Shown in pieces: positions 1 through 43,800 of a stretch of 64,000 bases of DNA; within the stretch, counting starts at the first letter, position 1, and each line of letters begins with the position of its first letter. A program made the translations under genes and the position numbers. The notes under the pieces were generated by a model. The model did not search any database. It was not told the DNA's origin and worked only from the letters and a program-made list of their open reading frames with translations. The DNA is taken from positions 62,001 to 126,000 of the forward strand of contig CDROCS010000482.1 of NCBI GenBank assembly GCA_977020255.1. Reading direction: 5' to 3'. Source of the DNA: Obrimoposthia wandeli (lineage: Eukaryota).

Positions 1-165
1 CTTGATATAATATAGTAAAATCACAAATACTCGTAACCATAACAAATATATATTTGCGGGTATTGAAATTGATGCATTAAAACAAATTCTTGTAGTAAAA
101 TTACTATACATGATCAGCTTTACACATGTAATTAGATAACTGTTAATATACATAAGCTTTATTTA

Positions 166-1017: not shown

Positions 1018-1347
1018 TTGAAGAAAGCTCATAACTATAATTTTATTTTTCCTGTCAACATCGAGGCGCTTAAATTTGATTTTGAAATATCAAATTTGAC
1101 TTCTGTGGATAAAGAGAGAATCAATATTCTCTTGACTCAATTCGGAATCAACTATGCGCTTCAGGAAAACAAATTCGTAATCAAAGGATCAACTGCCACT
1201 TTCAAGCATGAGAATGGAACAATATACGAAGCACCTCCTCCTAAGCTAGAATGGATTCTCTCAATCAGAATTCAAGGATGCAAGATCGGGCCCAGTGGAT
1301 TGGAAACTCCGATATGGAAAATAATTGATGCTGTTAGAGTTGACTAA
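1018..1347 (+). CDS. Polinton small protein, unknown 'PxWKI' family (copy 1)
   Basis: Intact ORF, about 90% identical to 26331-26669 (11 differences in 108 aa) and alignable to 35178-35654 and 34630-35094. Confidence 0.75.
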   Translation: MKKAHNYNFIFPVNIEALKFDFEISNLTSVDKERINILLTQFGINYALQENKFVIKGSTATFKHENGTIYEAPPPKLEWILSIRIQGCKIGPSGLETPIWKIIDAVRVD

Positions 1348-1406
1348 TAAATTTATTTGTATTATTTTATATATATATAAACAATAGTGATACTTTAATA
1401 TTTATT

Positions 1407-1772
1407 ATGAAAATGACTAAAAAACCTACTAAATCATTAAAGACTAAGGTTAAAAAGACTATGAGTAAAAAGACTATGAGTAAAAAGAAAATCATGGAGG
1501 GTTTGGGTATTCATATGATGGCAGCAAATCTTTTAGGTAGATGGTTTGGTGGAGTTGATAAAAAAGCTATAAAGCACAAAAAGAATGTGGATTATTTGAG
1601 AGGTATACAAAATCAGAAACGAGTGCAAAAAGGAGATGGTATACAAAAAAGGGATGGTATGCTTGATATTTTTGTAAAATTAGATAAACTTACAAAAGCA
1701 TTTGAAAAGGATCCTAGTGCCTATCTTGGTCCAAAACTAAACTTTTTAGCAAACCGACCAAAAACTTTGTAA
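1407..1772 (+). CDS. Lys-rich Polinton protein, possible core/pVII-like
   Basis: Basic N-terminus and repeated QKGDG/QKRDG motifs resembling adenain-type cleavage sites (inference). Paralog at 25904-26253. Confidence 0.6.
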   Translation: MKMTKKPTKSLKTKVKKTMSKKTMSKKKIMEGLGIHMMAANLLGRWFGGVDKKAIKHKKNVDYLRGIQNQKRVQKGDGIQKRDGMLDIFVKLDKLTKAFEKDPSAYLGPKLNFLANRPKTL

Positions 1773-1959
1773 TTACATTGCAATATAGATGCAGAGTGTC
1801 TTTGTTAGACACTCACACATATATATATATATATACATGTATAAGAATAAATGTTACTATTGATTACATAAAGATGCAAGTATTTGCAATATAGATGCGT
1901 GACTGTCTTTGTTAGATAGATATAGATTTTAAGTATGTTACTAAAAATATAATCTTTTT

Positions 1960-2390
1960 GACCTCACCATGACCTTAAGTTGTCCTCATGACGTCATGAC
2001 CTTAAGTTGACCTTAAAGTACATTGTCCTCATCATGACCTTAAGTTGACCTTAACTTGCCTTGACCTCATGACCTACATCTTGTCCTCATCGTGACCTTA
2101 AGTTGTCCTCATGACTTTAAATAAAAAATCATGTGTACTCGAGAGAAATTTGACCTACATCTGTCATAAAAAATTTGAGTTCAAAAATTTTGCGCAAATT
2201 TCAAACATTTTCAAAAATTTTTGCGCAAATTTCAAAAATTTTGACTTATATTTCAAATTTTTCGCGCAAATTTCAAAAATTTTGACCTATATTTCAAAAA
2301 ATTTCGCGCAAATTTCAAAATTTGACCTAAATTTTTTGTCCTTATCAAAAAATTTGACCTACATTTTTGACTTGACCTTAAAAAATTTTT
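1960..2390. repeat. Subterminal arrays of copy A (TGACCT-rich array, then AAATTT/GCGCAAA array)
   Basis: At least 10 TGACCT hexamers in 1960-2160, then degenerate short repeats up to the terminus. Confidence 0.85.
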
Positions 2391-2436
2391 GTCCTCAGGG
2401 GGGGGCTTTGTGCCAGAAGTGCCACATCTACCTACT

Positions 2437-16800: not shown

Positions 16801-19800
16801 TGAATTATTACTTCTAATTCCAATCGGTCAGTTACCCTTGTAAAATCTCCAACCGGTAAAAATTGTTACATAGCCCATCCATAGAGATTGTTAACATCAA
16901 TGTACAAAATAGTATCACCCTCAGAGTTAGTAATCTTATGTTCGTTCACAAAGGTCATTCCTCCACGAATACCTTCCTCAAACAGTCGATGCATCTTAGG
17001 ATCTTGAATCAATTCCACACTAGATCCGCCTGGAACCCTTGGTCTTTCTACGGTTGATTCAGTACCCAGTAATGACTTGAAAGCGCTTGCAAATTTTAAA
17101 ATTATTTACAAATTAAATAATGAAAAATAATAATAATATTTAACCTGGAATAGAAAATAAATTTAGAGGTTCCAATCCATCATCGGTGATAGCCTTCTCT
17201 CAAAATGTTGTAAACACATCCGCAAGTAGATATACATCCATTTTGAGATATACCAAGATATTGTCCCAAAGAGATTCACACCCACTCTCGTACCAAACTT
17301 TCTCCGCCAACTCATATTGTTCACTTTTGATCTTTTCATCCCATTTTGATGGAAGGCTTGTTATTGATCGGAGAGCACTCTCTGATACCGCCATATCGTA
17401 TGGAAATATCCCTTTACCATTCACAAGATGAGGTTGAAAAACAGAATGTGTCAATGGAATGGAAACTAAGTTTTCCACGAGTTTATCAAGACTACTATTC
17501 AAAAACTGCAATGAATCGATGAAACGTATACAGACTCCTCCAATACGCACTATCATTGCTTGGAATTTCTCTGTTGATTGAGGTATAACAGATACATTCC
17601 ATTTAGAAATGTTGCTCAGCGCATGTTTGAGAATGTGATGGAGATCATACCCTCTCAGGTTATGAAACACCACTGGGAGAGTACGATTCACTCGTCTAGA
17701 TAAATTGCACTTACTGTGAGCAGCTCCAAGGTCATATGATAATGGTCTTGTACCTTTTGAATGCATGTCTTATTACAGAAGTAACTACTAGTAGCCGATT
17801 CGAAACTAGCTATTTACTTGGGCGTAAGTGCTTGTATAACTTCCGCTGCATGTCTCTTATACCAAGGCAAAACAACTGTCTTTATCAATATTTGCAGCTT
17901 TGAAAAAAAAAATCAACAACACAAGTTTCACCAGTGAAAAGCAAGAAATCTTGAGTGTATCCTGTTGCAGCAATTGGATACATTAACATACCGGCTACAA
18001 TGGGGAGATGAATTTGATGGTGAATGCCATGGGGTGGGAGAACTGCTTGAAAATCTCCGTAAACAACAAATGGTGGAGAAATCGTTTTTGAAAAATCTGT
18101 GAATTGAATATATTTGTCCTCCGGCATCTGGTATAGTGTATTATGTTCCATATTCATCATACAAAGAGGTTTATGCTTCTCAAAACTTATTGCCCGTCTA
18201 AATCCATGAAGACATTTATGACACCATTTACATCGGATTCGTGTAGAACCTTCTTCTTTGTTATAATAGTTTAGAAGCATATTAAGATTTGGAACTGTGA
18301 TGTAGTGATATTGCTTTCCTTCTTCCAACAGAATTAGATTAGCTGGATTGCCTTCGGGATTGGTGGTTCGATACAATATATCAATAAAAGGATTTTTAAA
18401 ATTATCCTGACCCGAAGAAGAAATGATGTCTATGTGATTTTAAGGGAATACATTTATTGAAAAGGATGAATTCTCTATTTCGAAACGAGGGATATCAGCT
18501 AATCTCATAAGCATATCGTTTAAAGAGTATATCAAATCTCCTAAATATAGATAATATTGTGAGACTCTATACCTATACTGAGAGATAATATCGTACTTCA
18601 GAATAGAAAGTATACTATAGATAAAACACAAAACACCTGTATTCTGAACATTCACAACCAAATTGTGAATTTCATTTGGTGTAGCAATATATGCTTTTCC
18701 TTGGATAATTAATTTCCGTGGTCTTAATGATAATAAAATTTATATCCAGGATGTGTTTGAGTTGCCAATTACTGGCATTCTGAGAATACTTCTAAATCTT
18801 AGCATTGAGAGACTCTATACCCCGATCGACGAATTCAGGTGAAAAGAAAGTAGCCTTGTTTGAAATATTCCATTTTTTCACTCCACTCTCATTCTTGAAC
18901 TCCACCTGGAGCCCGAATTGCACCTTACAAGAAGCGAATTCTTCAACTATTACTCTTAAAGAGTCAATAGAGTGCTGCAGCACATCTAATTCAATAGCAT
19001 TATACATGTATGTCCTAAAATAGACATGTTCACCAACTCTCCTTGTTTACATAGTAAATTCATGTTTGTTTTACTGTGTTATTTTTAACAAAGAAATTGA
19101 AATATAAACAATAAATTGATATAAACGTAACAATTTCTATAAACAAAAGAATTATTAGTGTTTAATCGATTACAAAATGACTAATGTAAGTAATTTATTT
19201 TTATATTATTTCATTGATTATAATTTTAGTGCAATATTAACAAAAATCTTTGCTTTAATCAATACCATTTGATTTGCTAAACCAAGATGCAACAATATTT
19301 TGGAACAAAGTTCTATGGACGTATTTTCTATATATGTCCTCAATGTGAAGCGGCTGAAGAAGACTGGGGAGCTTTTGTTTCCAACAATCACAGCTAGGAT
19401 ATTTTGGAGCTAAAGGAAAGAGGAATATAGTTTTCAATCAAAAGGGAATAAAATATGTTAAATCAACCTCCAAACCCGATAAAGTCTCATTGTCATTCAA
19501 TCCTGATCGTATATCTACTCATTTAAACAAAAAGCATATAAATTTAGACCAAAATCACCTAAAAAACAGACGTATTATAGTATAAAGTGACATAAATATG
19601 AATTTAACCCTCAAAAATCATGTGTACTATAACAAAATTTGACCTCTTTTTCACATTGACCTTAGAAAAAAGAGGTATTATAGTATGTTTTAGAAATTTG
19701 GGCATTTTTTTTTGGTTTTCGCTAGGGGGTGGGTTGCTGGAACTGGACATAAGCATCTACTAATAATGTATTACAATATAGTTATATACCGCAAAGGTTG

Positions 19801-22800: not shown

Positions 22801-25800
22801 CTAGATTAAATCCCAATGTAATACACCAATAACACTTATTAGCACTTGGTATCTGGCGAGCAGTGACAATCTTCCACATTGGACTAACTCAAAGGTATTG
22901 ATCGAGCCTGATTCCTTCACATTTGATTGTAACATTATACTTCTCTCCCATCGAACAAGTCTTCATCTTATCACATTTTTCAATCTTCAAAATCAGCTCT
23001 ACAGTATTGTTGGGCTTAATTTAAATAAAAAAAGAAAATATAAAAATTGTAATATAATTTTATTAAATACAAAAATGACCAGGGTGCCAACAATTATGAG
23101 AGTTCTCAAATCAAAATTTTAATATTTTTAAAAACGTTAACATATTGAAGAATAAAAATAACAAAAATAAAATTAAAAGAATAATGACCTGTCGAATTTT
23201 TTGTAGGGGGAGGCCAGTCACGATGTCCAGTAAAATTTTAATTTGTCTATCTACCAAAAACACGGGTTTTTATATCCCCCCAATCTTCATGCCCTGGTCT
23301 TCCTGTCGGGGCTTTTGAATTAATCTAAATGGTGTTTGATCATTTAGATAATTTGCCCATTTAGGTTCCATCGGGTAACCCATTAGTAGGTGTGTCTGCC
23401 TGTTAGTATTGTAAACATTTATGTACTTTCTTATACTATTGGACTTTTTTTACCCAAAGGTGGGATTTTGATGAACCGTACATTTTTCAAATGGAAATAA
23501 TTTATGCTTTAAAATTATGTTTTGTTCATTCATTGCGACTTTTAGATGTTTAGAAATTCTTCTTTAAAGTTTAATTAATTAATGTTTTAATTAACAAAAA
23601 TCACATTTTTTGTGGATCTTTCTTAATAGGAAAGTTGAAAAACTTTCGAACATACATAAATAAAATCGATATTTCATTACTAATTTATGTGTAGTTATGA
23701 TTTTGATCTAAGGTATTTATTTATAATTAAGGTGAATTTTACACAAAATTAATTAATATTTTAAAACTATTATTCTCTATTGTGGGTCATTACATAACAT
23801 TTTAATAAGTATTTTGGTATAAACTTTATTCAAAACTTAAGCAATTGTTATTTATTTGCTTAACATATTTTAAGGATATTAACTTAAATATTTGCTATTT
23901 TTTAATGTTCTTTTAAATTTAACTCTAACAGTATCTTATCTGTAAATTGAATTGTCTAAGATCGAATCCTAGGAAAAGAGGATCAATCCGATTTCGAAGC
24001 AAAAATAAATCATGAACTCCATATCATATGTTAAATATTCTTCAGTTTCCGTTGAAATTTTAACCTTGTTAATGAATTTAAATTCAATTGGGGGAATTCA
24101 ATCTTATATACAACGGAGATTTTACATTCATAAAACAAGAATGCAGCTTCAAGATGAGATAAACAGTTATTGTGACAAAAACAACCAAAATCATGGTATT
24201 TATTTTTAGTAAAATTGTAACATCTATTATTATTGGTTAATTTGAGGCTCATTTTTATATAAATGAAGAGATATTTCCTTATATTGTTAAACATGCAAGC
24301 AATTACCGATGTATACCAGCATACCCATACTTTTCACGGATATGATATGCATTTTCTCAAGAAGCCTATCCATTACAAATTTATATATCTAGTATCGTTG
24401 AAAAATGTCAAATTCGATTACTTAATTTCTGATAATATTAAAACAGATATAGATAGAATCAATCAAATACTTACAAAATCAATTGTGAGTATCATGTGCA
24501 AGAACCGAAATTCATTATCAAAAGAAATGATGCCAATTTCAGAAATATCGTTGGATCAAAACTAGATTTCTGCACAACTGGATCACAATGGAATATCAAT
24601 ATCAAGATACAAGGATACAAGAGTAGGTAGATGTGACACTTCTGAAACAAAGCCCCCTCCTAAGGACAAGTTCAGATCATGACGAGGACAAAAAATGTAG
24701 GTCAAGTTAAGATCAAGATGAGATCGAATCCTAGGAAAAGAGGATCAATCCGATTTCGAAGCAAAAAAAAAAAAAAAAAAAATTCTCCAAGTCGCTCTTG
24801 TTGGATGACTTGTGAGTATATCTTGCCTGTCGTTATACTGTGTTGACTACTTAGTCTCACGTCGAGAAACCTCTCGTAGTTGCCCAAATCTAGATCCACC
24901 TCTCCACCGTCAGCCAGCACAAAACACTCGCCATGTTCGTATGGTGAGAATGTTCCAGCGTCCATATTCAAATACGGATCAATCTTCACCGATGTCACAC
25001 GCTGACCACAACTCTTCAGAAGAGCACCAATGCTACTCGATATGATACCTTTTCCGATACCACTAATTACACCTCCACTGACTCATGAGGTCATGACCTT
25101 AAGAAAATCTAGGTCATGACCCCCTCTGCTGAGGACAAAATGTATTTGTCCTGAAAGACACACACCAAGTAGGGGGATGTGCGTCTTTCAGGACAAAGAC
25201 ATTTTGAGCATACCCCCCCCCTTGAGCACAGGTTAAGGTCACGATGAGGACATGACATCATGAGGACAAGTTAAGGTCACGCTGAGGTCATGACCTCATG
25301 AGGTCAAGGTCATTTGAGCTCATGTTAAGGTCAAATTTCTCCCGAGTACACCTGATTTTTTCAAGGTCACATGAGGTCAAAGTCATGTGATGTAGGTCAA
25401 ATTTCTAAATTTATTTAAACTAAATTATCTACTTATAAAAATAAGTATTATGTAATTTGATAAATATGTTTAAATTAAATTCAATTAAACTATCTACTTA
25501 TAAAATAAAGTATTATATAATTTGATAAATATGTTTAAACGTTCGTGTCTCTATCTAACAAAGACAGTTATGTACTGCATTTATATTGCAAAAACTTGCA
25601 TCTTTATGTAATTTATTCTTATACATGTATGTATGTGTGTGAGTGTCTAACAAAGACAGTCATCAATACTTACAAAGACAGTCACGTACTGCATCTATAT
25701 TGCAAATACTTGCATCTTTATGTAATCAATAGTACCAAGTCACGTACTACCTTTATTCTTATACATGTGTATGAGTGTCTAACAAAGACAGTCATCAATA

Positions 25801-28800
25801 CATACAAAGACAGTCACGTATGTGTGTGAGTGTCTAACAAAGTTAGGCATCAATAGCTACAAAGACAATCACGCACTGCATCTATATCGCAAACTTTATG
25901 TAATTACAAACTCTTTGGAGGTTTTAGTATAAGTTTTCTACCAAGATAGGCACTAGGATCCTTTTGAATTGCACTTACAACTTTATGTAATTTTACAAAA
26001 ACATCAAGCATACCATCCCCTTTTTGTATGCCATCCCTTTTTTGCAATCCATTCCCATTTTGTATACCTCTAATATAATCCACATTCTTTTTCTGTTTTA
26101 TAGCTTTTTTATCAACTCCACCAAACCATCTATCTAAAAGATTTCCTACCATCATATGAATATCCAAACCCTCCATGATTTTCTTTTTACTCATAGTCTT
26201 TTTAACCTTAGTCTTTTTCGACTTTAATGATTTAGTAGGTTTTTTAGTCATTTTCATAATAAATATTATTAAAGTATCACTATTGTTTATATATAAAATA
26301 AAATAATACAAATAAAGACACACAAATTTATTAGTCCACTCTAACAGCTTCAATTATTTTCCATATCGGAGTTTCCAATCCACTGGGCCCGATCTTGCAT
26401 CCTTGAATTCTGATTGAGAAAATCCATTCTAATTTAGGAGGAGGTCCTTCGAATATTGTTCCATTCTCCTGCTTGAAAGTTGCAGTTAATCCTTTGATTA
26501 TGAATTTGTTTTCCTGAAGCGCGTAGTTGATTCCGAATTGAGTCAAGAGAATATTGATTCTCTCTTTATCCACAGAAGTTAAATTTGATATTTCAAAATC
26601 AAATTTAAACGGCTCAATGTTGTGAGGAAAAATAAAATTATAGTTAAGAGCTTTCTTCAAAACGTGCATCTCATATCCATATTATTTATGCATAGGTTGA
26701 TATAGCTTTTCAAAATTCATATTTACAATTATAAATTGTTATAGTTATTCAATTGTTTATCCTCTAAAGCTCAATTCTAATTAGTCGATATTCTTGTTTA
26801 TGAAAATCGTTTAGTATTAGTCATATCCTTAAAGGGCTTACGTTCTTCGGTTACTCGTGTAGGACCTGTTATTGTTTAACTTGATGGATTAATATTTTCT
26901 CTCTGATTATTTATATTATAATTTCTATTAGAATATAAATTACTACCGGAACCTATATATGTACTAGCTCTACTTTGATATTTTGATTATTTTGATTATT
27001 CATTTTCTATAAAATCATTATCAAAATATTGTTTATACTGCTTTATTCTTAAGATAAAGACATCACATGACATTTCTTGTAAATACTAAGAATGTTACTA
27101 AAAATATATTTTCATTTACTATATAAGCTAGACAATTTCCACATTCAATGCTGTTATGAATACTAAATTTATTTCACATTATGTTTAGCAAAATGGAGAA
27201 CTCAGCATTAAACGACGACGTTTTGACAAGATTGCAAGAAGAAATGAAAATATGATATATGAAGAAAGAAGATTAAAATAATTACAAGCAAAGTTTACTG
27301 CTTTAGCGGATAAGGGCAAAAGCAGGATTTAATAAGCACGTTGATTCGAAGGATAATGTAAAGTGTGTTTACTGTCTGGGAGCAATATCGGAATGTGAGT
27401 ACTATCTGAAACCAATGAAGCGGCATCAGGTATTTTTCCCAAGATGCGCGTTTGTTTTGAAAATGAATGTTTCAAACGTACCAATAATTGATTCCAGCAC
27501 CAAACAAATTGATTTTGATTCAACTCCAATGGATAAGTAGTTATTGTACGCAATAATTATTCTAATGATATTGAAATACCTACATTATCGATTTTCGATC
27601 ATGTATATATTTGGAATGATTCTTATCGATGTTGTTTCTGTCAGAAAGCAGTACCCCGACTTGAGTTTATTGATACTATGCCCGAAAGAATCTTTCCTAC
27701 TCGAGATTGTAAAGCATCTAGTATGGGAATCAAGAACGGATGTATTGTTGAATATCATATTAGTAATGATGAAATTGATGCTCAGATGGAAACTCGTCAA
27801 ATAGCTTTGCTGAAACGTGATTATAGCCATGATATAATCAAAGCCGTTTTAGTTAATAGGTTTAAAACATTCGGTATTAAATATGATTATATATATGAGT
27901 TTATAACGGATTTAAGGTCTTTAGAAATAAAATATGAACCAAAACATCGTATAAATTATCTTGAGTATCTCTTACCAAATCCCGAATGTGTTGTTTGCAT
28001 GACGGGTGCGATTTCCGTGGCATTTTTACCATGTGGACACTTAAACACGTGTATTAAATGTCCAGATCGTTTTATTTCATGTCCATATTGCAATACAATT
28101 AACATTAGACGAGTAAGAAATATTACATTTCATAGTATCGGCAATTAAACAAAGACATGTAATCTAAAAATATATGTTCAAATCGTATAAAGAGAAGAAA
28201 TCAGTTTATAATAATCAAAAATGCTACTTCACAATATCAAATTAGTGAATATTAATTACAAGGGAATGGTTGTAAGTAACATTCAACACTTACCATTTCG
28301 GACTTCGAAGCCTCATCAATATCGACTCAAGTGTGAAGGTTACACTATGATCATTTTCAAATCTGGTAATTTATTTTTACATTTAAATATAATTATAATT
28401 TAGGAATATGCAAAATAATGGGTTGTAAAACAGTGCTGGATGAAAGCACTCTTCCTTTTGATATAAAAATCGAAAGAATCCAATCAATCAGTCTCAGCTG
28501 CAATCTAGAAACCCCAATAAACCTGAGCAAGATGAGCAAGAGTATGGGATCGGAAGCTGTTTACGAGCCAGAATTCTTCCCGGGACTTCGATACGTCAAA
28601 TAAAATCCACTATGCGTGACCATTTTTGCGAGCGGGAAGATTATGATACTTGGTGTTAAATCTTTAAACTATGAGTATCTGATTGAATGTATTTTGTTCA
28701 ATATAAATCTTCAAACTTGTGTTATTTATTTCCTAAACAAAGACAACCAAATAGTCGTAATGTTGCTAAAAATAGATTTATCTTAGAGACAAAGACATCA

Positions 28801-31800
28801 CACGTAATTAGCTGCAAATAGCTGCAAAAGTTGTACTGTTGCTAAAAATAGATTTATCTTAGAGACAAAGACATCACATGTAATTACTTGCAAATAGCTG
28901 CAAAAGTTGTAATGTTACTAAAAATAGATTTTTCTGGGTTATAAACAATATTTGATTTGCTTTATCATAAAATGGATGAAATTATTAAATGTGAAGAGGT
29001 ACAGGTTGCATTAAAAGATCTTGCCTCAGTTATTCTCAATGCTTTAATTAGGAAAAATAATCACGAGTAATATTTATTTGTAGTTTATTTTACTCTTTAG
29101 GTTACGTCATCAACTACATTTACATGAGATGTTAAGTACAATGGAAAGGTTGAATAATACTCCAATCAAATCACGGGGCTATGATGAAACTGATGCTCCA
29201 ATGAAATCAAACCTCGTTTAGTATATAAGAGTAAATCTACTCTGAATTGATAAAAGGGAGAAAATCACATCAGCAACATGTTCATTGGCAGCAACATCAT
29301 TGCCAACACCATCAGCAGCAGCATTATCACCAGCAGCAGCAACAACAACAGTTATGAGAAGAGAAGAAACTATTGATGAAGTGACGATAGAAGAAGAAAT
29401 TATTATAGATCCAAATTATTGAAGATAAGAGACGGATAGATTTTTTGAATGCTTTGGCTTTTATGGAACCCATAATAGCTCATGCTTCCAGTATGGAAAT
29501 GAACCACATGACCCATCATTTTGATAGTTGGTTTAGGGCTAGATTTACTCAACATAATGTAGAAAAATTAAACAAAAACAAAAAAATGAGTGAGATTTTA
29601 ATAAATCAATTATATATTGGTAATTATAGAAATGGGTTTGATGAAACTACACTTTTGGACTCCGATTTCACTCATGTAATCAATACATCTATACTGGATA
29701 AGATATCTTATAAGAAATTTGAATTATACTTCTGTCTTTGTAATCTCCAAATTATGAGAAACAATAATGAGATATTATAAACAGACTACTAATATAATTA
29801 AAGAAACTATCGAAAATGGTGATAAGATTTTAGTATATGGTCATTATGGTAGTTTACATGCTGCTTGCATTGTTATTACATTTTTATCTTCTTCAATGGG
29901 TGTTACTGCTGCTTGTAATCTTGTTAAAGCTAAACGGACTATTGCTGTTCCTAATGAAGCTATGCTTCATCAAATACGTATTTTTAATCGTTATCATGTG
30001 TAAATTTTATTCGTCTTTATCTTTATTAATCAGTGTCTTTATTAGTTAGTGTATTTATTAACCAATCAGATTTCAAATGTATAGTATATAAGTAGATTAC
30101 TTTTTACTGCTTCTTCATTATGTCTACTCCAAATTATTTCAAGCAAGATGTTGACAAGGCGGTAAAGAGCTTCATCTCGAAGAATGTTATAGAAGCAGAT
30201 GTCCTGAAACTCATTGATGTTTCAAATCTACCCCTGGAGGAGCACATAAGAAGAATGGTGCATGACAAGACCGTCAATCATCTCATTCTGGGATACTATC
30301 AGAAGAAAGAAGAACTGGCAAAGAAAGAAGAGAAAGGAGACAACTCTTCTACGTCTGTCCAGTATGTCTCTCCGCAGAAGAGATTGATTGGTTGGAGTTT
30401 GTGGCGCCTCATCGCACCCATCTTTGCCATTTCCGGCAAGAAGGCCATCTTCCGGGATAGAGCTCACGGTAATATGACTGCTTTTCCTGCTATCATTTCT
30501 CAAGATCGGGTTGCTGCTTCTTCGCCAGTTACTGTCCCAATTGCTGTGCCAATTGCTGCCCCAGTTGCTGCACCAATTGCTTCTCCACCATCTAATGTAT
30601 TCTCTACTGTGGTTCCAGTTATGCCTCCTTCATCAACAGCTGGTATTATCCCCGCGTCGTTACCAGCATCTACCCGCAAGAGAAGTGTTATGCCCACTTC
30701 AGGTAGCTCTGTTGCGAAGTTTCCTAGGGTTAATGCCGTTAAGCGAAAAACTAGTCTTCGGAGCACGATTGAGACATTGTCATTAGATATTTCTAATGAC
30801 AATGTCATTGATTTACAAGTTCCTGAATCACTTTTGACTAGCTTAAGGGACACAGTCAGCAAGTTTGCGACTTGTAAGGTACAATTCGGAGTGTGTGTTG
30901 AATTTTCCAATATTAGAGCAACACGTGCTTGGAAATTTTCCAATATAGGGCTTCCCATATATGAGGGATTTATAGATGCGGGAGTAGATGGGATCAATAA
31001 GAAGATTGAGAATTATTCCCAAAATAGTAGTAATTGGGTTAGTGAACCGCTTCCTGGAAATTTTGTTTGTTGTGACTAAAACAACAAAATGAACTATCTC
31101 CAAGGGAGTAGTTATATACCAACTCCAACTGAGTTATCACTCTAACATTGCGTTATCAATGTGCAGAACTCTAACACTTTCTGTTTCCTTTACAGCATCT
31201 TAACTGTACTTTTTCGCGAAGTATTTCGCTCTAATCCTCATCGGGTTAATCAATATGATGCCCTGGTGAGTCAATTAGTTTTTGATGAGAATGAGATGCC
31301 GATGCATCCATGTAATATACTGCGATTAGAGAGAAAGAATCCATCTCGCTCAATCAACGTATTTACATTCAATAGGTTTTCAAATGTGCAAACATAGGGA
31401 TATCTTCAAAAATCCCTATGTGTATTTCATTTACAGAACCACAAACCAATAAGCCAATCAATCTTCTCATTTTAGAAAACAAGGATAATTTTCATTATGT
31501 CGGTATTCCTAAACTCAATAGGCTGCTTAATTATAGGAACAAAGGTGTATCTAATTGCATTCGGTGTACTTGGTGTCATAAGTGTCTCCATGGGTTCCGG
31601 AAAGCAATAGGTAATGCCAAACACGTTCCACTCTGTAGGATGAATTTAGATCATACAACACTTTATTCAATGCCTACAGAGAAGCATATTGAGTTTAAGG
31701 ACTTTTCAAAAACAATTTATCCGCCTTTTGCTGTTTACGCGGACTTTGAGGCTGTGCTGCCGCCGCATGGAATACATAATCAGATTCAGCTTCCAATCTC

Positions 31801-34800
31801 GGCCGGTATGCTCATGTCTCCAGTTGCAGCTACGATAGGGTACACACATGATTTCATATCTTTATTTTCTCCTTTATAATTATTTATTAATATTTAATAA
31901 GAAAGAATCATCACAGGTAAGGTTATGAATATATTGATATTTTTAAATAAGATGATTCATGAAACGATAGACAGAGAAATGATAATAATATGAATATATA
32001 TACTTCAATAAAATGGTGAGAAACTACGCTATCTTTAGAAATATCTTTAGAAACACCTAACCCCAATAATTATTTAATAATCAATAGCTGCTTGGAGAGG
32101 TTTTCCTAAACATCGAAGTCTTCTACATAATTAACTACATTACTCCACTTTATACTCCAAATCTCAATAAAATACTATATTAGAAATATCATTAGGAGCT
32201 CCAATGATCAGCGACTTTATGCTGGTTGATGATACTGAAAAAACTACTGAGACTGAATGTTGATAATAATATCGGTAATTTCTGTGTTTCAATAATCGAT
32301 TTTTATATACAGTAATATATAAATTTATGGTATTTGGAGATTTCTCTGAAAGTTAGGGCCATGTTTAAAGTTTTTGATAGAAGATTCATGAAAAGATAGA
32401 CATAGAAATGATAGTAATGGATAGATAAACCTCGAATTGTGTTTATTGATTTTAAGATTCATTCGCACTCATATAAAATTTTAAATATTTTCCTTCTACA
32501 CCATCACTTGATCATCTAACTCAAATATAACAAGGAAACTCTTAATATCTTAGTTTTTACAACAACATTTTTACAACTAAAAGTTTATCATATTGGTTAA
32601 ATAGCTACAACGTAGTGTATTTTTAAATAACTGCAACGTAGTTGATTTTAACCAATCAAAATTAAGATAGAAATTGATGTATAAGTAAAGCTAAAATTTA
32701 AAAGTCATTAATAATAATTGGCTATATCGTTTTTATGTACATCATTCTTTCCATTATAAACGTAGCACTATGTTTTATTTTTGAAAAACATCCATCATAT
32801 GTTTGCTTTGTCATTTCATAACTACTTTGATGAATGAGGTACCGTTATTTAACTGGGCTGCTTTATGTTTAGTCTTTATAAATATTTATAAGTTTAAATA
32901 ATATATATTGGTTTGCTTTCCTGGATTCTGTGCTATTCTCTCCTTAAACCCTAATACTTGTTATATTTATCTTCTTAAACCTCTTAGCCTCTACGTTATA
33001 TTCCTCTTCTGAAATCTCCTGTAAACCTATTTTAAGGCAATATTTTCTTTTCTGAAACCTCCTAAGAAACTGTTAAATCCTCCTCTGAACATTTTTTAAG
33101 GCCTTCATTTCCTCTTTTGAAGCCTCTTGGACACCACCGTTAAATCCTCCTCTGAACCCATTTTAAGACTATAAATTATCTTCTGAAACCACATGAACTC
33201 ATCCGTTAAAACCCTCTCTAAACCTCTTCTTATGCTATTTTTTTCTTCTGAAATTAACATCCCCGTTAAATCCTCCTCCTTTAAATCCATTTTAGTATAT
33301 ATTTTCTCTTCTGAAATGCCTTAAAAACCCCGTTCAATTTTCGTTTGAAATCTTATAATTACTAAGTAATTTTTCCTCTAAACACCTTGTAATTTTTTTA
33401 TAATACCACGTATGCTTAGAATTCTCTTCAGAATCACATAAATATCACAAATTACCTGAACATCTCCTTAATTTATCTTCCAAACCATCGAATACCACAA
33501 ATGTTATATACAATGCATTAATTCCTTCTCTATACATATCCTTATTCTAAATCAGCTTTCCTCTAAACAATCTTAATGTCACAAATCTCACAAAAATCAC
33601 CAAATATCACATCTCGAGGAATTCTCTTCTAGAAACACCTCGTTAATTTCCTCTCTGAACAATGATGGTTTAATTTCATTTCGAAAATTATTATTGGATA
33701 TATATACCAAATTTCAATAAAATTCTATATTAAAATAAGATTGACTTAGAAGCTCTGATGACTTAAGTCAGTTGATTGATTATGGTTAAGTTTGTATAAT
33801 ATTGATAAATTCAATGAAAAATATCCACTTCATCAAAATTATGCATGTTTTGATATGTTAAAATGTTTAATAAATCGATTTAAAATACTTATAGATAGAA
33901 ATAATAGATAAATTATTCCAATATACGCAGTATATTTATATGCATATTTTAAAATGTATTGACTATTATAGTTAATAATTAAATAAATATTTCCAATTAT
34001 ATTATTTATATCAAAAATTTCAAAAATTTCAAAAAAATAATATATCCACTTTTTATTTGATGATTAACTTCTATAAAAGTTTTTTATCACTTCATTATTA
34101 AAATGTTACAAATTGTATTACTTTAAAAATCATACATATGCGAAACTGATTTATTTTTGATCACAGTTTTCATTACTAAATCAAATACATTTACTATACT
34201 AGTAGGTGGATGTGTCCGGTCTAATCCACACCCCCCTCTCCCCTACTGTCCTTTAAAACCGTGCATGTGTGTAGTGAAATTTCGTGTAGGTGTGTGGAGT
34301 GAAATTTCGTATATGTGTGTCTCCATTCCACCCAAAGGGGGGAGGAAGGGGGGTACCCCCGCACCCACCACATTTTTTAAAAATTTTACAACGAATCTCA
34401 AAAGTGGTTAGAGAAGACCACGAGAATCCATATTGACCACGGCGGCTTTTCGCAGACGAGATTTCAAATATTACTACTATTTTTAAGAAAGATTTTAGAT
34501 TAATAAATTACTACATGTTAAATATCTATGTCAGTTTTAGAATTTAGAGGAGAAAAAATCGGTCAGATCTATATAATTTAGAGAAGAAAAAAACAAAATA
34601 CGAGACAAAATTATTTTTCAAAATATTTATTAAACATAAAACAACATATTGGCTTCACTCAAAGTCCAGAGAGGCTGTATTTTCCCGTCATCAGCAAAAT
34701 ATCCATTGAGACGTGTTGAGATATTCCATAGTTCTTCATCTAGAATTGGAGCAATCAAATATCCTAGATCATCTTTAAAATCCAGACCGGGATCAGTTTC

Positions 34801-37800
34801 AAGCTGGAAACAATTTCCTTCATATACATAATCAGGAATGTAAAATCCCAAAATATTTTTCAATTGATCAATATCAGTTGTTGTTAAACTTTCGATGAGA
34901 TATTTATTCTGCACTTTTGATATTTTCAAAGGATTCATAACTCGTATAATTTGATGCCTCTTTAATATATTACATAGTTTTCCTTTTGAAATTCTTTCTG
35001 GATAATAAAAATTTGCTACACATCTCTTATCCATTCTAAAATAAAGAAACTGATTAAAAACAATGTTTATAAAAAAAATACATATAAGATACAAATAAGA
35101 TACAAATAAAACTGATTATTAATTGCCAAATGAAAGAAACATAGTAAAACCGATTACAATTTATTACACGCAAAAAGTTAAAACATAGAAATATGAGCAC
35201 GTTCAATTTTCCACATAGGCAACTTTGTTCCCATTTCATCTTTCTTGTAACCATAAAGTCGAATTGTTAGAGTCCATTGCTTCTTTTTTGGAAAGGCATC
35301 AATATCAACATATCTTCCATAGTCATCTAGAAATGCTTCATCGGCTCCTCGGATATAAAATTCGTTCTTATTGAAAGTAAAATTTGGAACTGCCCTTTCA
35401 ACTTTCTGTTTAAGATATTGAAAATCAGGTTTTTGAATACCTGATAGATAGTAGCTGAACTTTCTTCTTTCAATTGTCACAGGATTTACTAAAGCAATCA
35501 GTTGAGCCTTCTTCAAGAATCTGACTTTGTATTTGAAATATTGTTTCACTTCTTCATACATATCCTTATCCGATTCTTCAAACATTTCTTCGTCATCGCT
35601 TAATACCCGTTGGCTATCGTCCATCGTTGATAATTGTCTTTGATATGAATGCATTTACTATGATTTGTCCTCCAATGGCGCATTCTTTTATACTAATTTC
35701 TAACAAAGACATGAATCTTATTGGTTAATATAACTAAAGCATTGAATTTGATTGGACTAAATCTATATTAAAAATCAAAATTGATTGGAAGAAATATATC
35801 ATCCAATTATAATAGGTTAGCAAGATAATTACAAGAAACGTGCAATAAAAAAGCAGGTTCAGACATATATAAAGAAGATTTTACAGAATACAATTTCAGT
35901 CTAATGAAACTCGTAAATATAAATTATAAAGGTAGAACAGATGATGATGTTTTGTACTTACCATTCAATGAATGGAAGCCGAGACAATATGTAGAAATGT
36001 TTGACTATTTCACAGTTGTTATTTTTCCTACAGATTAGTTTTTTTATTTCCATATTGAATTCTTTTAGGAAATTGTCGTGTTATGGGATGCAAAATACCA
36101 ATGCTTGGGTTCAATTTACCATTTGGAATTCGAATCACTGCAATACAATCAATCACGATTTCGGCTAATCTTGGGAAACAGATAAATCTTTTTAAAACTG
36201 CAGAGAAAATGAAAGAAGAATGCATGTTTGAACCAGAAATTTTTCCTGCTCTCAGTTATTTGAAGTTTAAACCGCTATGTGTAAATATATTTTCCAGTGG
36301 TAAAGTTATGATATTGAGATTGAAAAATTTTGATTATCCAGACATTGTTGATTTGATTTTAGAAAATATATCTTATTACATCTTGTTATCTTTTTCTATA
36401 AACAAACCCGTTTAAACTTATTGTTTCAAATGAATAATACTATAAATAGAGACAATGCAGTGGATCGGCTTGCCGACGAAATATTTTCTGGAAAAATTAG
36501 GGGTAAAGAAATTTTATCAGAATTAAAAAATAATGATATAACAAGAGATAACATTGAAATATTGGTTAGATCACACGTTATTCGAGAATTTAGAAATCGT
36601 ACACAAATAAATAAAATTATAGTCACATATTCATTAATTAATATTTGTATTTCATCTACAATAGCTCTAACATTGTACATTTCGATAAGAAAACTTCTAT
36701 AATAATATAAACAAAATTAAAAATGAAAGAGTATATACAATGGAGCTAAATAATAATGCTGTATTTCAAATAGTTGGCCCTAGTGAAAGTGGAAAGACAC
36801 ATTTCGTCTGTAAATTGTTGCAAAAATGAATTTCTTTTCAAATCTAGTTTCAAAAATATATTTATTTGTATCATGGTGGAGAAGGGGAAAGCGGGTTAAC
36901 CAAAACAGAAGTTTGCAAGTGAAGGGTATAAAGTTTATTGAAGGATTTGATGCAAATTGGTGTGAAAGATTGAAAAAAGAAGATGTAATAAAAATTGATG
37001 ATTTGTATGAGGAGGCTAACAAGGAATCGGACTTTAATAATTTATTTACAAAGATTGCAAGACATCGTGAAGTAACAGTTATATTTATCACTCAAAATCT
37101 GTTTCACCAAGGAGGTCACCATAGAACAAGAAATCTTAATGTACATTACTTAGTTTTATTTAAAAATCCTAGAGATCAAACAGTTGTTGATTTTGTGGCC
37201 AGACAGGCATTTCCTCAAAATAAGAACTTTCTAGTTGATTCATTCCACGATGCTGCTAAACAAGCACATGGGTATATATTTATTTGACTTTACACAAGCT
37301 TGCTCAGATGATTTACGTGTTTTAACAGACATATTTAATTCTAAGGGAGTAACTGTTTATAAACAAATAGAGAACAATTATAAAAAATAAATTCGCAATG
37401 CATTTTACAAAGTTGATAGTAAAACGTAAAGTAAAATCTAAGAAATCAAAAAAAAGAATCATTAAGAAAAAAGAAGTGAAAAAATTAATCAAATCTGTAG
37501 TTAAAAAAAAAAAAAAAACTTAAATGGCTTCGAATATAAACAATATTTAAATTGAACCTTTTTTATTAAAATGAAGAAAATACAAAGAAGCATACCCTAT
37601 TTTAAAGCTTTAGTCAAAGCCTCTTCTAATAAGAGAATGATTATTCTTAAAGCATTTCCATCTTTTGTTGTAGATGATTTATTGGAAGTTTTGTGTAATA
37701 TAGTTTTGGGTCGAGTAAAAGTTGGAAATCGGAAAAATATATTAATGAAATATAGAAAAACTCTTCTAGATATTGCTAATGTAAAAAGTAAAAAAAGGAA

Positions 37801-40800
37801 ACGAAATATTATTCTTAAACAGAATGGTGGTTTCATAGGGGCTCTTATTCCAGTTGTTGCTTCAATTATGAGTAGTATTATAGCTGCGACATAAACAATT
37901 ATTTCTAAAATCAGCTAAAGATATGGGTGCTAGGCCTTCTTTACCTAAACTTAAATTTTCTTTCTATTCCAATTGTTGTAATGGAGAAGATATGGTTCAA
38001 TCCAAAAGATCCAATTGGCTACACAGGAGTTTCAAAATTAGCAAAAAGAACAAAACAAAATTACAAGAAAACGCAGAAATGGCTGAGCGACCAGTTAGCC
38101 TACAGTCTGAACCAGCCGATGAGAAGAAGGTTTCCAACTAGAGCTTACAAAACCAGCGGTCCTAATAATTTATGGCAGATGGATTTGATGGAGATGATCC
38201 CATATTCTTCCATTAATAAGGGATATCGATATATTTTAACATGTATTGATGTATTTAGCAGGTTTGCTCGTGCAATTCCACTTAAAGCAAAGTCTTCAAT
38301 AGCTATGCTTGAAGCCATTAAAGAAATATTAAAAGAGGACATTCCACAAAATGTGCAAACTGATTTAGGAAAAGAATTTTATAATAAGCAAGTTCAATCA
38401 TTATTTAAACAAAATAATATAAATCATTACTCTGTGTTTTCACAATACAAAGCAGCAGTAGTAGAAAGATTTAATCGTACTCTAAGAGATCGAATAAAAA
38501 AGTATTTCACAAAAGAAGGAAATAAAAAATGGATCCAAGTTTTACCTAAAATAATACATGCATATAATCACTCGGAACATAGAGGTCTCAAGGGAATGAG
38601 ACCTGTTGATGTTACTAATAAAAATTCTATGGATATTTGGATGAACAGGAATAAAAAAGAAAATATTAAAAAAGCAAAATATAAGAAAAACGAATATGTC
38701 TGAATTTTGAAAATTAGCTCTACTCCATTTATTAAAAACTTTGATCAGAATTGGAAGCATTGCCGGTGAATCCAGTTCCGCCAGGCTTTCGTCCAAACCA
38801 GCGTCATCCCAGGCCCTCTTCAAGTTCTGGCTGGTTGTTGGACGAGGAGAAGTAGTCTCATGCAGATGTGGTTGACTCGAGGACGGACTTATCTCGATCG
38901 GCAATACTGGGATCCTCTCGTATAAAATTGAACCGTCGTCCACTGGAGATGGGAGAATCTCCTGCTGGCTAATCACCGCCTCAGAATAATGGCCAATTGA
39001 GGTGCGAATGTTTCTCGAGCGCTTCGTCTTTTTCACCTCTGCCGGCTTTGTCCTTTTCTTAGGGAAAGCAGTAACTTCTCCCCAAGTCTCCTCAATTATC
39101 TGGACAGGTTCCTGCAAATGAAAACATTAATAAAATTTCAAATAAATTTTATTTAATTAAAAAATATTTAAAATACCAAAAAATTACCTCAATACTCGTA
39201 TACGGAAGTTTTTCCTGCCGCTCAATCGTTACTTCGCTCGATTTGAGTAGACAGGATTTCGCCTTTCTAAGACGCCGTACTGCAGCCCGCCTCGTTCACT
39301 CCTGCGGGAAAGGAGAAATTTTGGCCCATGTCTCCTCAGTTAATTGTATTGGTTCCTGCAACAAAAAACATAAATAAAATTTAAACATATAAATAATTTA
39401 CCTCAATGACGGGCAGATTAGCCTGTTTCGCCAACTTGGCCTTCTTCCGATGGACCGTATTGGTTTTGACTCGATGGCGTCGAGGTTTCTTAACTGATGC
39501 TTGCTTCCTATCGACGGGTAATCTCCGAGTTGCCTCCTCCCAAATTTCCTCCACCAATTCGGCTTCCTATGTGTATAATTAAATAAATTTACTTATTTAT
39601 AATAATATACTTCAAATTTAGCCGGAGTCGGTAGGTAACGCTGATCACTCCTGGGATCATCCTGGCTACATTGACTCGCCAAGTACTGCGGTTCAATTAG
39701 CCTCTCAATCGTGGTCACTGACGGTGCCAAATCCAGTTGCAGTTTCTGAAAATAAAATTAAAAAACATTTTAAATAAATGATGTCTAACCTCATTCGTCG
39801 CCTTTATTCTCCTAACAGGACGTATCGGAGATTGTGGCCTTTTGAATGGATCAGGCACTGCATTGTTGGATATCGGAGTCGGAGTTGTTGAGGGAGTGAT
39901 ACCATCCCATTCGTCGGTGAACAGATCCCACTCATCTTCATCCAATTCTGCAACCATGGACTCGTTGGCTCCTGGGGCTCCGATACTTGGCTGTATCCAT
40001 TTCTCCTCCCCATCCGACGGAACGTCATCAGTAAACAGCTCCTCGCCTGAGTCTGGTGCCAGTATTATCTCCGGTTGAGACAGAGGGATCAATTTCCAGG
40101 GGCATTTGATTGCCGCCTCAAAATTGTCAAAGAGATTGGATCTCCTTGCTGCTACTGCTGAAGTTGCCGGACGATTGGCTTCTGTGTTCAGCCTGGGAGT
40201 ACAGTCTTCCCAATTCTCTATCGAATCCTGACTAGTCAGATCGATATATTGGGATCTCTGTACCTCACCTCGCACGCTCATTGGTTCTTCTCTTGGAGTT
40301 GAGCTGGCCAATGGTGCTTCTTCTTGTAACAGCTCCGCTCTTGCTGCTGCTTCTCATTCGTCTCCTTTGCTCACCACCGACGAGTCTTGACTAAGTAAGT
40401 CAAGGTACTGCGCCGGTGGTGGCGTTCGCTGCTGTACTGGAGAGAGATCCCCATACAGTTGAACCTCCGTCTCTTCATCCAAATCGACGTTGTTGAAAAT
40501 TGGCATTATTAATTATTGATTAATGATATTTGATTTATGAAAAATAATGAAAAGAGGTTTCCTTATATACAAAAATAATAGACTAACCCTCTTTTGTCGT
40601 CCAATGAGAGCGGGTTATTCAAATAATTTATTTTAAAATCAGTAGGCTTTTCTCAATTTTTTAACTATGTTTGAATGCTAGAATGTCATAGGATAAAACA
40701 TATTTTATTCGAAAATATAACTATTTTCTTAAGATTTTGTTGCTTAAGTTTAACGTCCAATGAAAACGTATTATTCCAAGAATTTATGATATTTTCTTAA

Positions 40801-43800
40801 ATTTTGTTGATGTTTGAATACATGTATATCTTTGGATTTAAAATAGTAATATTTTTTTGACTGTACATGTTTGGATGGTATAAAAAATTCATGAACTCAT
40901 TTAAGGTCAAGTTAAGGTCATGACCTTATGAGGTCATCATCATGAGGTCAAGGTCATTTAAGGTCAACATGAGGTTAAGGGTACAAAGTTGTCTAGGTCA
41001 TCATGAGATCAAGATCATTTATGGTCATGATGACTAATTTGATGACTCACCAAATAAAAATGAAAATTATTTCGAATTTATGTAATTGATTATTTAAATT
41101 TTTTTTGCTACCCTATATATGTATCTTTCTTATAAATTATTATAAAGAAATTTTTTTTAAGACATTGTATATATGTATAGATATAAATTTTTGTTGTTGA
41201 GTGTTTGGGAGGGGGGTAGAAAACCTTTCTACACATCTGCATGGAATTTCACTCCACACACATGCACGGTTTTAAAGGACAGTAGGGGGAGGGGGGTGTG
41301 GATTAGACCGGACACATCCACCTACTTATACTATAAAATATATTTACATTTTAGGTTACTGTGAAGCGATAAACGATTTTATTGACCTTAACTTGATTAA
41401 AATACAGAAATTTATTATCCATTGACACAAAATGATATTTAAAATGTAGATTAGTGTAAGTCAAAGAATGTAATATACTCGAAGTTACACAAGGTTACTT
41501 AATTTAAAACAATTAATTCAAAATGTAATACATTTAGGATTTATTTTTTCAATTTATTGAAAACGACAGTATTTTATCAATTACTTTTTATGTGATGGAA
41601 TAATACAGTAATAACTTAAAACATGTTAAAGGAAATATATGCAAAATATATTATGTTTACAAGTAAATTTCAAATATCTAGTAAACAAAAAATTTAAATA
41701 CTTAATAATACTTAATTACTTAATAATAACTTATATTTGAAAATTATATTATAGACAGTCGGGGCGATACAATTAATAAGTTTATAATTTGGAATGTTTT
41801 GTTTTTGAAGTTTAAAAATAAAGTCACTTGACAAAAATCACAACAAAAATGCGGACAAGTAAAACAAATTAACATAAAAAATGAAAATTTTTGTTGAAAA
41901 ATATTGAATATTATATTAATTATATGTTGTCAAGAATAGCTAATTATTTTGTGATTATTATAATTATTATTATACCTATATTCTGCCATACTCTCTAATA
42001 CTAGTTCATTTACATATACATTCGATATAGCTTACTTGATTTTATTTACTCTTGCTATCCCTTAGCACCATTTTCATATACACTACCTAACTCTTATTTT
42101 CATTTACTTATTTCTAATTCGCATTCGTACTTGGTTTCATTTACATACATTCTAACTCTAATTTATTCCAACTTTCATTCAAATTCATTGATACTTTTAC
42201 TGATATTCATTCATATTTGGTTTCTGTAGGTCTAACATTTGTAATTGTACATGTATAAGTTCTTACTTGAATTTGTAATTGCATTCATAATTCTACTCGC
42301 TTTTATTTAAATGTGTTCATTTACATCCAAGGACCTTAATTTTACTAGTTCACACAATAATTTTTATAATATTTCTTAGAAAATTGAATAATATATTGAA
42401 ATATTAGATTGATAGTCAAATATATGAACAATTTGATTGATTTATATGTTAAACAATATAATTAAAAATTTTATATTCTAAGTTATTGACAAAGCTTTCA
42501 GAAAACTTTGAAAAATATAGCTTTAGAAATAAATTTGCAATATTCTATACAAAACATTTTTTGTTGAATTATTTTATTAGAACTTGTATGTTTAAAATAT
42601 ATTTTAAATATTTATAAAGAAAAACGAAAAATGATAATATTCAAATTATATATATATATTTACATTCAAGTTTTTTGAAAATAAAGAATTCAAATTCAAT
42701 TGATAAAAAATCTAATTAATGAAATTTATCAAATGAGATAAGGAATATTTAATTATTTCAATGTGTAGGAATGAATTTTGATCATAGTAGCATTTAAAAA
42801 AAAAGTAAATAAAAATAAATAAAATGTGAAAATAAAAATATGGGAAAATTTACATCTAAAATAATAGAATTGTAATCAAATTACTAATATTATTCATTGA
42901 TTGTTAGTATTTATTTGTTAATTAGTTAGTAAAAACAATAATTTGTATTTCTTCATTTCAAAATTTAATTTGTAATTATTAAATTTCTAATATTTTCATA
43001 AATGTTTTAAGACATAAATTACTAATATTGAAGCATGCTATTTTGAATTTTATAAATATATATAACGTTTAATTTGTATTTGAATATACAATTGTTTGAG
43101 TACATCAATGACAACAATAAAAAAACACACACATAAATGTCAATATTTGTTAAAATTGTTATTTCACAAAATGCTATAAAAATTTAAATGAATTAATAAA
43201 ATGAGATGTGGACTTTTAAAGAAAGAAATTTGTAAAAATTATGTAAAGTGGGTTAATATTTTGTATTATTCTATATTTATTTTTAAATTAAATTTGTATT
43301 TTAGTAATTGCTTGTTGAACTTAAAGTAATTAATTTTTTTTCTAAATTAAAAATATCAAATAATCGTTGTAAATTATTTTATTTTAATAAATTATTTATA
43401 ATTTTTATTAATTGCAATGTATTTGAAATATAATTTTTTTGTCATTGTTTTAATACATTAATTGTATACAATAATAAAGCACAATTTTAATGTAATACAT
43501 TTATAATTTAAAAAAAGAAGAAGTTACACTAGTTGAAATAATGATATTAGTGTTTCAAAATTACGTCAAAGGAGTTAATCAGTCCACGTATGATAGGTGT
43601 TCGGATAGGGATACTAAGTGGGCTAGAATCCATCCTTCCACGTACTTTCCCTCTATCCATTCATCCGCCCTCGATTCATTCATCTGTCCATCCATCTATC
43701 TCCCTCCATCCCACCCTCCTTCCCACCCTCCTTCCCACCCTCCTTCCCTCCCTATCTCCCTCCATCACTCCCTCCAGATCTTCATCCCACCCTTCATCAG

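Follow-up and report, generated by a model that had tools for sequence, protein, structure and literature searches.

A stretch of 64,000 nucleotides (nt) from Obrimoposthia wandeli (GenBank assembly GCA_977020255.1, contig CDROCS010000482.1, positions 62,001 to 126,000; hereafter the window) contains two Polinton elements, B and C, each carrying a gene for a small protein related to the TATA-binding protein, TBP. We call this protein mini-TBP. It is a real conserved Polinton gene and a common cargo, a TBP label in a related element having been published before, and its tiny intron is probably genuine but secondary. We consider it rather likely that mini-TBP, at 145-160 amino acids (aa), is a conserved late-promoter factor of Polintons, which would be made early, read the promoter word YATAAAC and recruit host TFIIB and RNA polymerase II (Pol II). 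It is, to our knowledge, an open question by what means Polintons activate the genes for their particles when they have no RNA polymerase of their own and no helper virus. A candidate factor and a candidate 7-bp site make this activation testable.

The mini-TBP genes of elements B and C

The mini-TBP gene begins with the ATG at 28221 in B and with the ATG at 35904 in C (features lie on the plus strand unless stated otherwise). In each gene, a short insert lies in phase 1 of the Gly codon of the repeat-1 IF..G motif. In B, exon 1 (28221-28365) encodes the N-lobe strands S1-S4. It is followed by a putative 38-nt intron with GT..AG ends (28366-28403) in the Gly of IIFKS-G, across which intronless homologues are colinear, and by exon 2 (28404-28786), which has a premature in-frame stop at 28601-28603. 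In C, exon 1 (35904-36033), a putative 35-nt intron (36034-36068) in the Gly of VIFPT-G, with a non-canonical donor in the window copy, and an open exon 2 (36069-36415, stop at 36415) follow one another. An earlier note on this DNA had described two two-repeat TBP genes with 38- and 35-nt phase-1 inserts in this Gly codon; the sequence, the Pfam matches of exon 2 and the fold of the homologue P0002 confirmed this. Its start for the B gene, 28221, stands, and its end is to be moved from 28770 to 28786, where the frame ends. The YEPE/FEPE stirrup, both IF..G phenylalanines and the KP.QY segment are also as it described them.

Exon 2 passed the Pfam TBP cut-off (PF00352, 22.9 bits) in both copies, with 28.7 bits in B (E 1.2e-6) and 42.7 bits in C (E 5.2e-11). 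The parts of B exon 2 on either side of the premature stop matched with E 1.2e-6 and 0.0072, and exon 1 of B or C alone gave no Pfam TBP match. The two genes are homologues from different Polinton families, with 46% identity over 114 aa of exon 2. Because B has an in-frame stop and C a non-canonical donor, neither window copy is a working gene. The lesions are mostly copy-level. After skipping the insert, the reading frame was open in 33 of 55 B copies and 17 of 30 C copies, sets that are biased to young, similar copies because each was picked as the best matches to one copy.

Fold and residue pattern

The AlphaFold2 model of P0002, an intronless homologue (63-row alignment), had a predicted local distance difference test score (pLDDT) of 96.5. 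All 44 PDB matches of this model at E<=0.001 were TBP or TBP-containing chains, with 159-184 aligned columns. The structure search that the earlier note had proposed as a check therefore gave a TBP-fold match over both repeats, and mini-TBP is predicted to have the two-repeat saddle fold of TBP. In Atlas, P0002 fell into generic TBP clusters, and the Foldseek identity of its model to viral models was at most 20%.

Residues were counted in 113 mini-TBP rows, with a cellular TBP and the yeast DNA contacts of Table 1 in PMC12529657 as the reference for position. The TFIIB-contact glutamates are kept, as the earlier note had proposed for the stirrup: the E186 equivalent is Glu in 97% of the rows and the E188 equivalent in 99%, and both are present in the two window copies. 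The intercalating phenylalanines F116 (100%), F190 (99%) and F207 (100%) are also kept. The F99 equivalent is Pro in 96%, so that one member of the canonical four-Phe set (F99, F116, F190, F207) is missing. On the DNA face, V71 is replaced by N (91%), V122 by R (97%), T124 by M (100%), N159 by S (92%), V161 by T or S (99%) and L205 by N (98%); the mapping of V71 and F99, from the repeat-2 register and an extension of the alignment, is slightly less sure than that of the other positions.

The N-lobe H2 segment has a median of 21 residues versus 32-33 in four cellular TBPs. It is a non-helical loop in the P0002 model, where the basic patch of canonical helix H2 is predicted to be absent. The accessible text of PMC7221094 assigns TFIIB contact to the two glutamates and contact with TFIIA, TAF1, Brf1/2 and Mot1 to the basic H2 patch of the N-lobe, and reports that giant-virus TBPs lose both the glutamate contacts and the patch. 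Unlike these, the mini-TBP family has lost the H2 patch and kept the TFIIB glutamates. Pfam TFIIB had 12 matches genome-wide, and the five loci that were translated resemble host Brf1/TFIIB exons, which speaks against an element-encoded TFIIB unless it is very divergent.

Distribution of the mini-TBP family

Among 5.8 billion proteins searched, 4 relatives with 51-53% identity were found, and 98 clusters of a representative protein library matched mini-TBP at E<=1e-10. Several database proteins start at the exon-2 Met. In a metagenome scan, the best 80 of 121 confirmed loci were used; one of these (L139) was a cellular TBP and was dropped, leaving 79. Polinton hallmark genes were found on 39 of the 79 loci and on 20 of the 22 loci of at least 4 kb. 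The gene usually lies directly 5' of the ATPase of the ATPase-integrase module, with the exception of L089, where it lies 3' of the protease. Mini-TBP was also present in PLA2-domain-bearing Polintons (L113, L124, L130). Because these carriers form a distant clade, the gene spans at least two deep Polinton groups.

Scans of IMG/VR with mini-TBP and with the ATPase gave no match. An integrase scan of the same database gave 4 loci, and one partial contig without mini-TBP was used as the motif control below. A search of the O. wandeli genome for a Polinton family lacking mini-TBP found none, and the gene was on all 5 regions fetched. Mini-TBP is common across a wide Polinton group and is not peculiar to the O. 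wandeli lineage. With the 98 clusters and a TBP label already published in 2021 (see below), the earlier statement that "this lineage" has an element-specific TBP was too narrow.

The candidate promoter word YATAAAC

The upstream regions of dereplicated metagenome mini-TBP loci were searched for shared words. ATAAACA occurred in 56 of 157 upstreams, versus 4.0 expected. ATAAAC was found within 100 nt upstream of 71/83 packaging-module genes versus 4/51 mini-TBP genes (Fisher p 4e-20, which is descriptive only, because the gene classes were chosen after the sequences had been seen). It lay upstream of 23 of 24 ATPase genes, in 12 of these at 33-37 nt. The base 5' of ATAAAC was T or C in 61 of 64 cases and A in 1. 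The background in PolB open reading frames (ORFs) was 0.05 per 100 nt. YATAAAC was absent from 10/10 upstreams of the one partial Polinton contig without mini-TBP, which is a weak control.

The mini-TBP genes themselves have another kind of upstream region: 20 of 51 fit a canonical TATA pattern and 15 of 51 have CCAAT. The window genes carry TATAAAG 35-36 nt upstream, as judged by sequence; the TATA-type box of B, TATAAAGA (28186-28193), is 35 nt 5' of the ATG, and that of C, TATAAAG (35868-35874), is 36 nt 5' of it. The N-lobe Phe pair of TBP grips the 3' end of the TATA box. YATAAAC departs from host TATA at this end, where that grip and the strongest change in mini-TBP coincide.

Four genes of window element C have YATAAAC at a distance of 33-38 nt upstream; for the two possible starts of the ATPase, the distance is 17 or about 34 nt. 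The words are at 35065-35071 (minus strand), upstream of a conserved ORF of about 160 aa (34633-35115, minus); at 36397-36403, 33 nt 5' of the ORF 36430-36702; at 36706-36712, preceding the ATPase gene; at 37535-37541, 36 nt 5' of a small basic ORF (37571-37894); and at 37890-37896, 33 nt 5' of the integrase ATG. In B, the word at 28940-28946 is 32 nt 5' of a small ORF at 28972. A polyadenylation signal was considered as the identity of YATAAAC and provisionally set aside: A is nearly excluded at the first position, the C is invariant, and several copies lie within the preceding ORF.

Selection on mini-TBP

In the 55 copies of family B, the pairwise ratio of nonsynonymous to synonymous substitution rates (dN/dS) was 0.48 (0.33-0.75), and the shifted forward frames gave 1.28 and 1.45. 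The antisense frame with common third positions also had a low dN/dS, as expected. The net divergence between two B sets gave an unweighted dN/dS estimate of 0.22 (0.03-0.89). These ratios support purifying selection on family B mini-TBP. The earlier note had called for intact copies under such selection, and copies with a GT-AG intron and an open frame do exist.

The probable tiny intron

The ends of the insert are GT..AG in 53/55 B copies (37-39 nt) and in 26/30 C copies selected by DNA; among 30 C loci selected by protein, the donor was canonical in 29 and the lengths were 34-39 nt. Removal of the insert restores colinearity with intronless homologues, as for a U2-type spliceosomal intron. 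Four contig runs of one sample that were compared with C behaved as DNA and carry no information on expression; the junction of the two exons was absent from the 15 joints listed of 80. The insert was found in 4 of 6 families sampled in the O. wandeli genome (B, 38 nt; C, 34-39 nt; D, 36-45 nt; G, 40 nt) and was absent from E and F. Among the 79 metagenome loci, where 13 others were partial or frameshifted and the best-match ranking favours intronless genes, only L099 carried it (40 nt). The typical lengths in the five carriers, 38, 35, 36, 40 and 40 nt, leave remainders of 0, 1 and 2 on division by three, and the 36-nt form usually contains an in-frame stop; splicing is therefore the sole simple reconciliation. 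The interiors could not be aligned between carriers, except B with G (p 0.014). Judged from these sequences, the insert of 35-40 nt is probably a genuine spliceosomal intron gained within the Polinton lineage. If so, these introns imply nuclear transcription of the elements, and ORF-only annotation misses genes.

Inheritance of the intron from the host TBP was rejected for this host: the host genes L144 and L145 are uninterrupted at the repeat-1 IFSSG. The two genes stand head to head about 1.2 kb apart, and the short introns of host TBP, 47 and 48 nt, lie before YEPELF. The host also has divergent TBP paralogues (L142, L143, L146). An origin by proto-splice duplication was not supported, with AG|GT in 0 of 72 intronless loci.

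In the mini-TBP tree (149 columns, 40 of the 113 rows), which is too weak to settle the history of the intron, four carriers were grouped in 0 of 200 bootstrap trees, and a single carrier clade was not rejected (p 0.38). In the core-gene tree (1,279 columns, 22 rows, of which 10 were under half filled), a single intron clade was rejected by the approximately unbiased (AU) test (p=0.002); the intronless family E joined B, C, D and G, and L099 joined intronless relatives. Possible histories are a single gain followed by several losses, exchange of the gene between elements, and parallel gain. The intron is kept where present, yet it is dispensable for the mini-TBP protein. The earlier idea of long-term selection on a spliced gene, drawn from the shared intron, goes too far, since E, F and almost all metagenome relatives are intronless and the carriers do not form one core-gene clade.

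A candidate intron was also seen in a second gene. The single-stranded DNA-binding (SSB)-like gene has a candidate 41-46-nt GT..AG intron after CAA/CAG, directly 5' of the conserved domain, in 11 of the 24 ORF rows listed (L062, L065, L067, L069, L070, L074, L075, L080, L084, L087 and L092). The pattern suggests that early genes of this Polinton group may tolerate or favour splicing.

Proposed role and alternatives

The role that we consider rather likely for mini-TBP is as follows. A host-type TATA promoter would drive its early production, and it would bind YATAAAC before the packaging-module genes. Its retained acidic stirrup would recruit host TFIIB and Pol II, and the loss of N-lobe helix H2 would let it escape the host regulators Mot1/BTAF1, TAF1, TFIIA and Brf1. 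If this is true, mini-TBP is a minimal TBP found in nature, altered in specificity yet still running on host TFIIB, unlike the herpesvirus and giant-virus mimics. A wider scheme, which we put forward only tentatively, is that a large Polinton group has autonomous two-step transcription: spliced early genes on host TATA/CCAAT promoters would give mini-TBP, the smallest known two-lobed TBP, which would read the orthogonal YATAAAC, borrow host TFIIB and be immune to Mot1 and TAF1, and splicing would act as a host-dependent gate.

Several points weigh against the proposed role. The link between mini-TBP and YATAAAC, as read from sequence, is a correlation. YATAAAC is TATA-like, and the genome encodes several host TBP paralogues that could read it. 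"Early" and "late" were assigned from gene type. Because the gene-less control consists of a single, partial contig that belongs to a distant group, the motif and mini-TBP may share ancestry only. Only 20/51 mini-TBP upstreams fit the canonical TATA pattern, and 4/51 carry ATAAAC. The fold was predicted for P0002 and not for the B or C protein of the window. In the 30 copies of family C, dN/dS was 0.65 (0.34-1.32), which is not significant. The mini-TBP tree (p 0.38) and the core-gene tree (p=0.002) disagree on a single intron clade. ORF24 of KSHV (Kaposi's sarcoma-associated herpesvirus), the best-known small-genome analogue, is modelled as TFIIB-incompatible in the accessible text of PMC12529657.

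It is unlikely, in our view, that mini-TBP is a general TBP supplement or an ordinary TATA binder, with YATAAAC as a lineage variant of TATA for which host TBP paralogues or some other element protein serve as the reader. The TATA-like word, the three of four Phe and both glutamates that are kept, the divergent TBP paralogues of the host and a negative control of a single contig all fit such an arrangement; however, at seven positions of the DNA face, 91-100% of the 113 rows agree on a residue other than that of TBP, and YATAAAC avoids the promoter of mini-TBP itself, with A at the first position in only 1/64. The earlier note had offered two uses for the protein, redirection to element promoters or a decoy. 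Redirection now gains a candidate motif, YATAAAC. It appears rather improbable that mini-TBP is a decoy, dampening host transcription or defence, beside other host-manipulating cargo, by tying up host TFIIB or by competing at host promoters. In favour of a decoy, the stirrup is the best conserved surface, and IAP-like, phosphatase and ubiquitin-conjugating genes are among the neighbours. But a decoy leaves unexplained the invariant remodelled DNA face, the module-confined motif and the usual slot 5' of the ATPase, which is held while other cargo varies.

A role outside transcription, as a DNA-bending factor for replication, packaging or integration, is quite improbable. In most elements, mini-TBP has the packaging ATPase and the SSB-like gene as neighbours, and it has lost its N-lobe partner surfaces; yet a factor of this kind would give no reason for 97-99% retention of the TFIIB-specific glutamates, and YATAAAC stands at promoter distance from start codons. 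As for the insert, we regard it as very improbable indeed that it is unspliced, whether as an inactivating insertion in these families or bypassed by frameshifting. In favour of this, several database proteins start at a Met that belongs to exon 2 itself. This explanation has to contend with GT..AG ends retained by five diverged lineages, with insert interiors that for the most part cannot be aligned (B and G alone are similar, p 0.014), with insert lengths spanning all three frames, with constraint on family B, and with the 33/55 B and 17/30 C copies that are open when the insert is skipped.

Relation to known systems

The label "TBP" stands in the legend of Fig. 5, for MELD viruses with adintovirus-like PolB, in Starrett et al. 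2021 (PMC8502044; preprint 10.1101/697771). As in B and C, this is a TBP-like gene in a Polinton-type element, given there as a figure label. The accessible text of that paper has no element name, distribution, residues, promoter motif, intron or discussion for the labelled TBP; one supplement gave no TBP/TATA match. In the literature searched, with figures, bioRxiv supplements, Repbase and most subscription papers outside the search, no description of the mini-TBP family, the YATAAAC motif or the intron was found. The earlier note had asked whether such a gene is routine Polinton cargo; it is common cargo, and a TBP label is on record. TATA is unmentioned in the accessible parts of a 2026 Polinton-like virus (PLV) framework preprint and of a nematode Polinton paper, and a mention for Cymbomonas concerns other elements.

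Like mini-TBP, KSHV ORF24, one of the TBP mimics of beta- and gamma-herpesviruses, is described in the accessible text of PMC12529657 as a viral TBP fold of a nuclear DNA virus that brings host Pol II to late promoters, and both proteins have polar residues in place of V122, V161 and L205. ORF24, according to the same text, has 752 aa and several domains, works with viral partners, keeps all four Phe and is the protein modelled as TFIIB-incompatible. In contrast, mini-TBP is a bare stand-alone core of about 150 aa that has lost F99 and kept the TFIIB glutamates. By analogy, we regard it as a functional analogue of the herpesvirus TBP mimics, neither a member of their family nor a canonical TBP. 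The TBP-like proteins of nucleocytoplasmic large DNA viruses (NCLDV) have likewise lost the N-lobe regulator surface, with escape from Mot1/BTAF1 proposed in the available text of Ravarani et al. 2020 (PMC7221094). According to that text, their TFIIB contacts have diverged and they are often paired with a viral TFIIB, whereas mini-TBP keeps the glutamates. With cellular TBP (PF00352; PDB 1qn5, 1ytb, 1cdw), mini-TBP shares the two-repeat saddle, the EPELFP stirrup of the C-lobe and F116/F190/F207. It differs from it in being about 30 residues shorter, in its reduced or absent N-lobe helices and in the replacement of F99 and of six other residues that contact DNA.

Vertebrate Mavericks that are intact contain no introns, according to the accessible text of Barreat and Katzourakis 2021 (PMC8097293). 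Dinoflagellate Polinton-like elements contain introners, and the available part of PMC11957031 describes most of these as post-integration insertions. The mini-TBP intron differs from these in lying in one codon and being common to copies of families that spread.

Polinton context of elements B and C

Polintons that are nested and carry deletions are clustered in the window. Element C is a deleted Polinton of 7.1 kb (34201-41326) with inverted repeats and a TATACT duplication. The left duplication is at 34195-34200, the left terminal inverted repeat at 34201-34308 and the right repeat at 41228-41326 (minus), followed by TATACT at 41327-41332. The SSB-like gene of C (35178-35654, minus; a lead only) is divergent from mini-TBP, and its Atlas leads were to Pox_I3/DUF2738 clusters, all scoring <0.9. 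A frameshifted A32-like packaging ATPase (36723-37378) was recognized by tblastn to Pox_A32-matching metagenome ORFs (E to 6e-64). The rve integrase (37923-38755; PF00665, E 3.1e-13) is truncated, and homology to other copies stops at 38755. From there to 41228, unrelated sequence with several ORFs (39715-40353 is acidic, 212 aa) and no Pfam match takes the place of the remaining element.

Element B starts at 24622, has lost the ATPase-to-protease module at about 30339 and has only its left repeat within the window. This terminal inverted repeat begins with AGTAG (24622-24669; inverted match to 2389-2436, 90%). Just within the left end is an N-terminal fragment of CTP synthase (24705-25082, minus; PF06418, E 9e-52), with a 15-aa duplicate at 23958-24002. 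A conserved small SSB-like gene (26334-26681, minus; a lead only) is homologous to C 35178-35654 and to metagenome ORFs. It is followed by an IAP-like gene with BIR and RING domains, in pieces (27132-28148; RING PF13920, E 3.7e-10; BIR by homology to 169-516, PF00653), by a dual-specificity phosphatase-like gene split over two frames (29409-30003; second piece PF00782, E 7.7e-9) and by the N-terminal part of a polymerase gene (30096-31879).

In other copies, the full gene order of family B is SSB-like, BIR, RING, mini-TBP, phosphatase, ATPase, small basic, integrase, two conserved ORFs, a ~420-aa ORF, protease, a ~160-aa ORF and PolB. That of family C is SSB-like, mini-TBP, small ORF, ATPase with the same module as B, and PolB. 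All four of pPolB, rve integrase, packaging ATPase and C5 protease were found in other B and C copies by tblastn, with Pfam support in metagenome loci. The conserved ~420-aa ORF 5' of the protease has no Pfam match and, judged by its size and position, is probably the capsid gene.

Element A (window 1-2436 and an upstream part of the contig) is a fold-back derivative of family B with 2.4-kb arms of 96% identity in inverted orientation; no mini-TBP was found in the 10 kb upstream. Polymerase genes of other Polintons lie at 15658-19046 (minus), 51126-54548 (plus) and 63892-63999 (minus). The genome is AT-rich and 1.35 Gb in size, and its Polinton load is very high: mini-TBP queries gave 32,151-42,207 first-look candidates, which are not copy numbers, and single 20-kb stretches of the genome hold nested copies of several Polinton families. 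Long tandem arrays of 10-bp and 16-bp units were also seen in the window, at 57903-59100 and 62488-62967.

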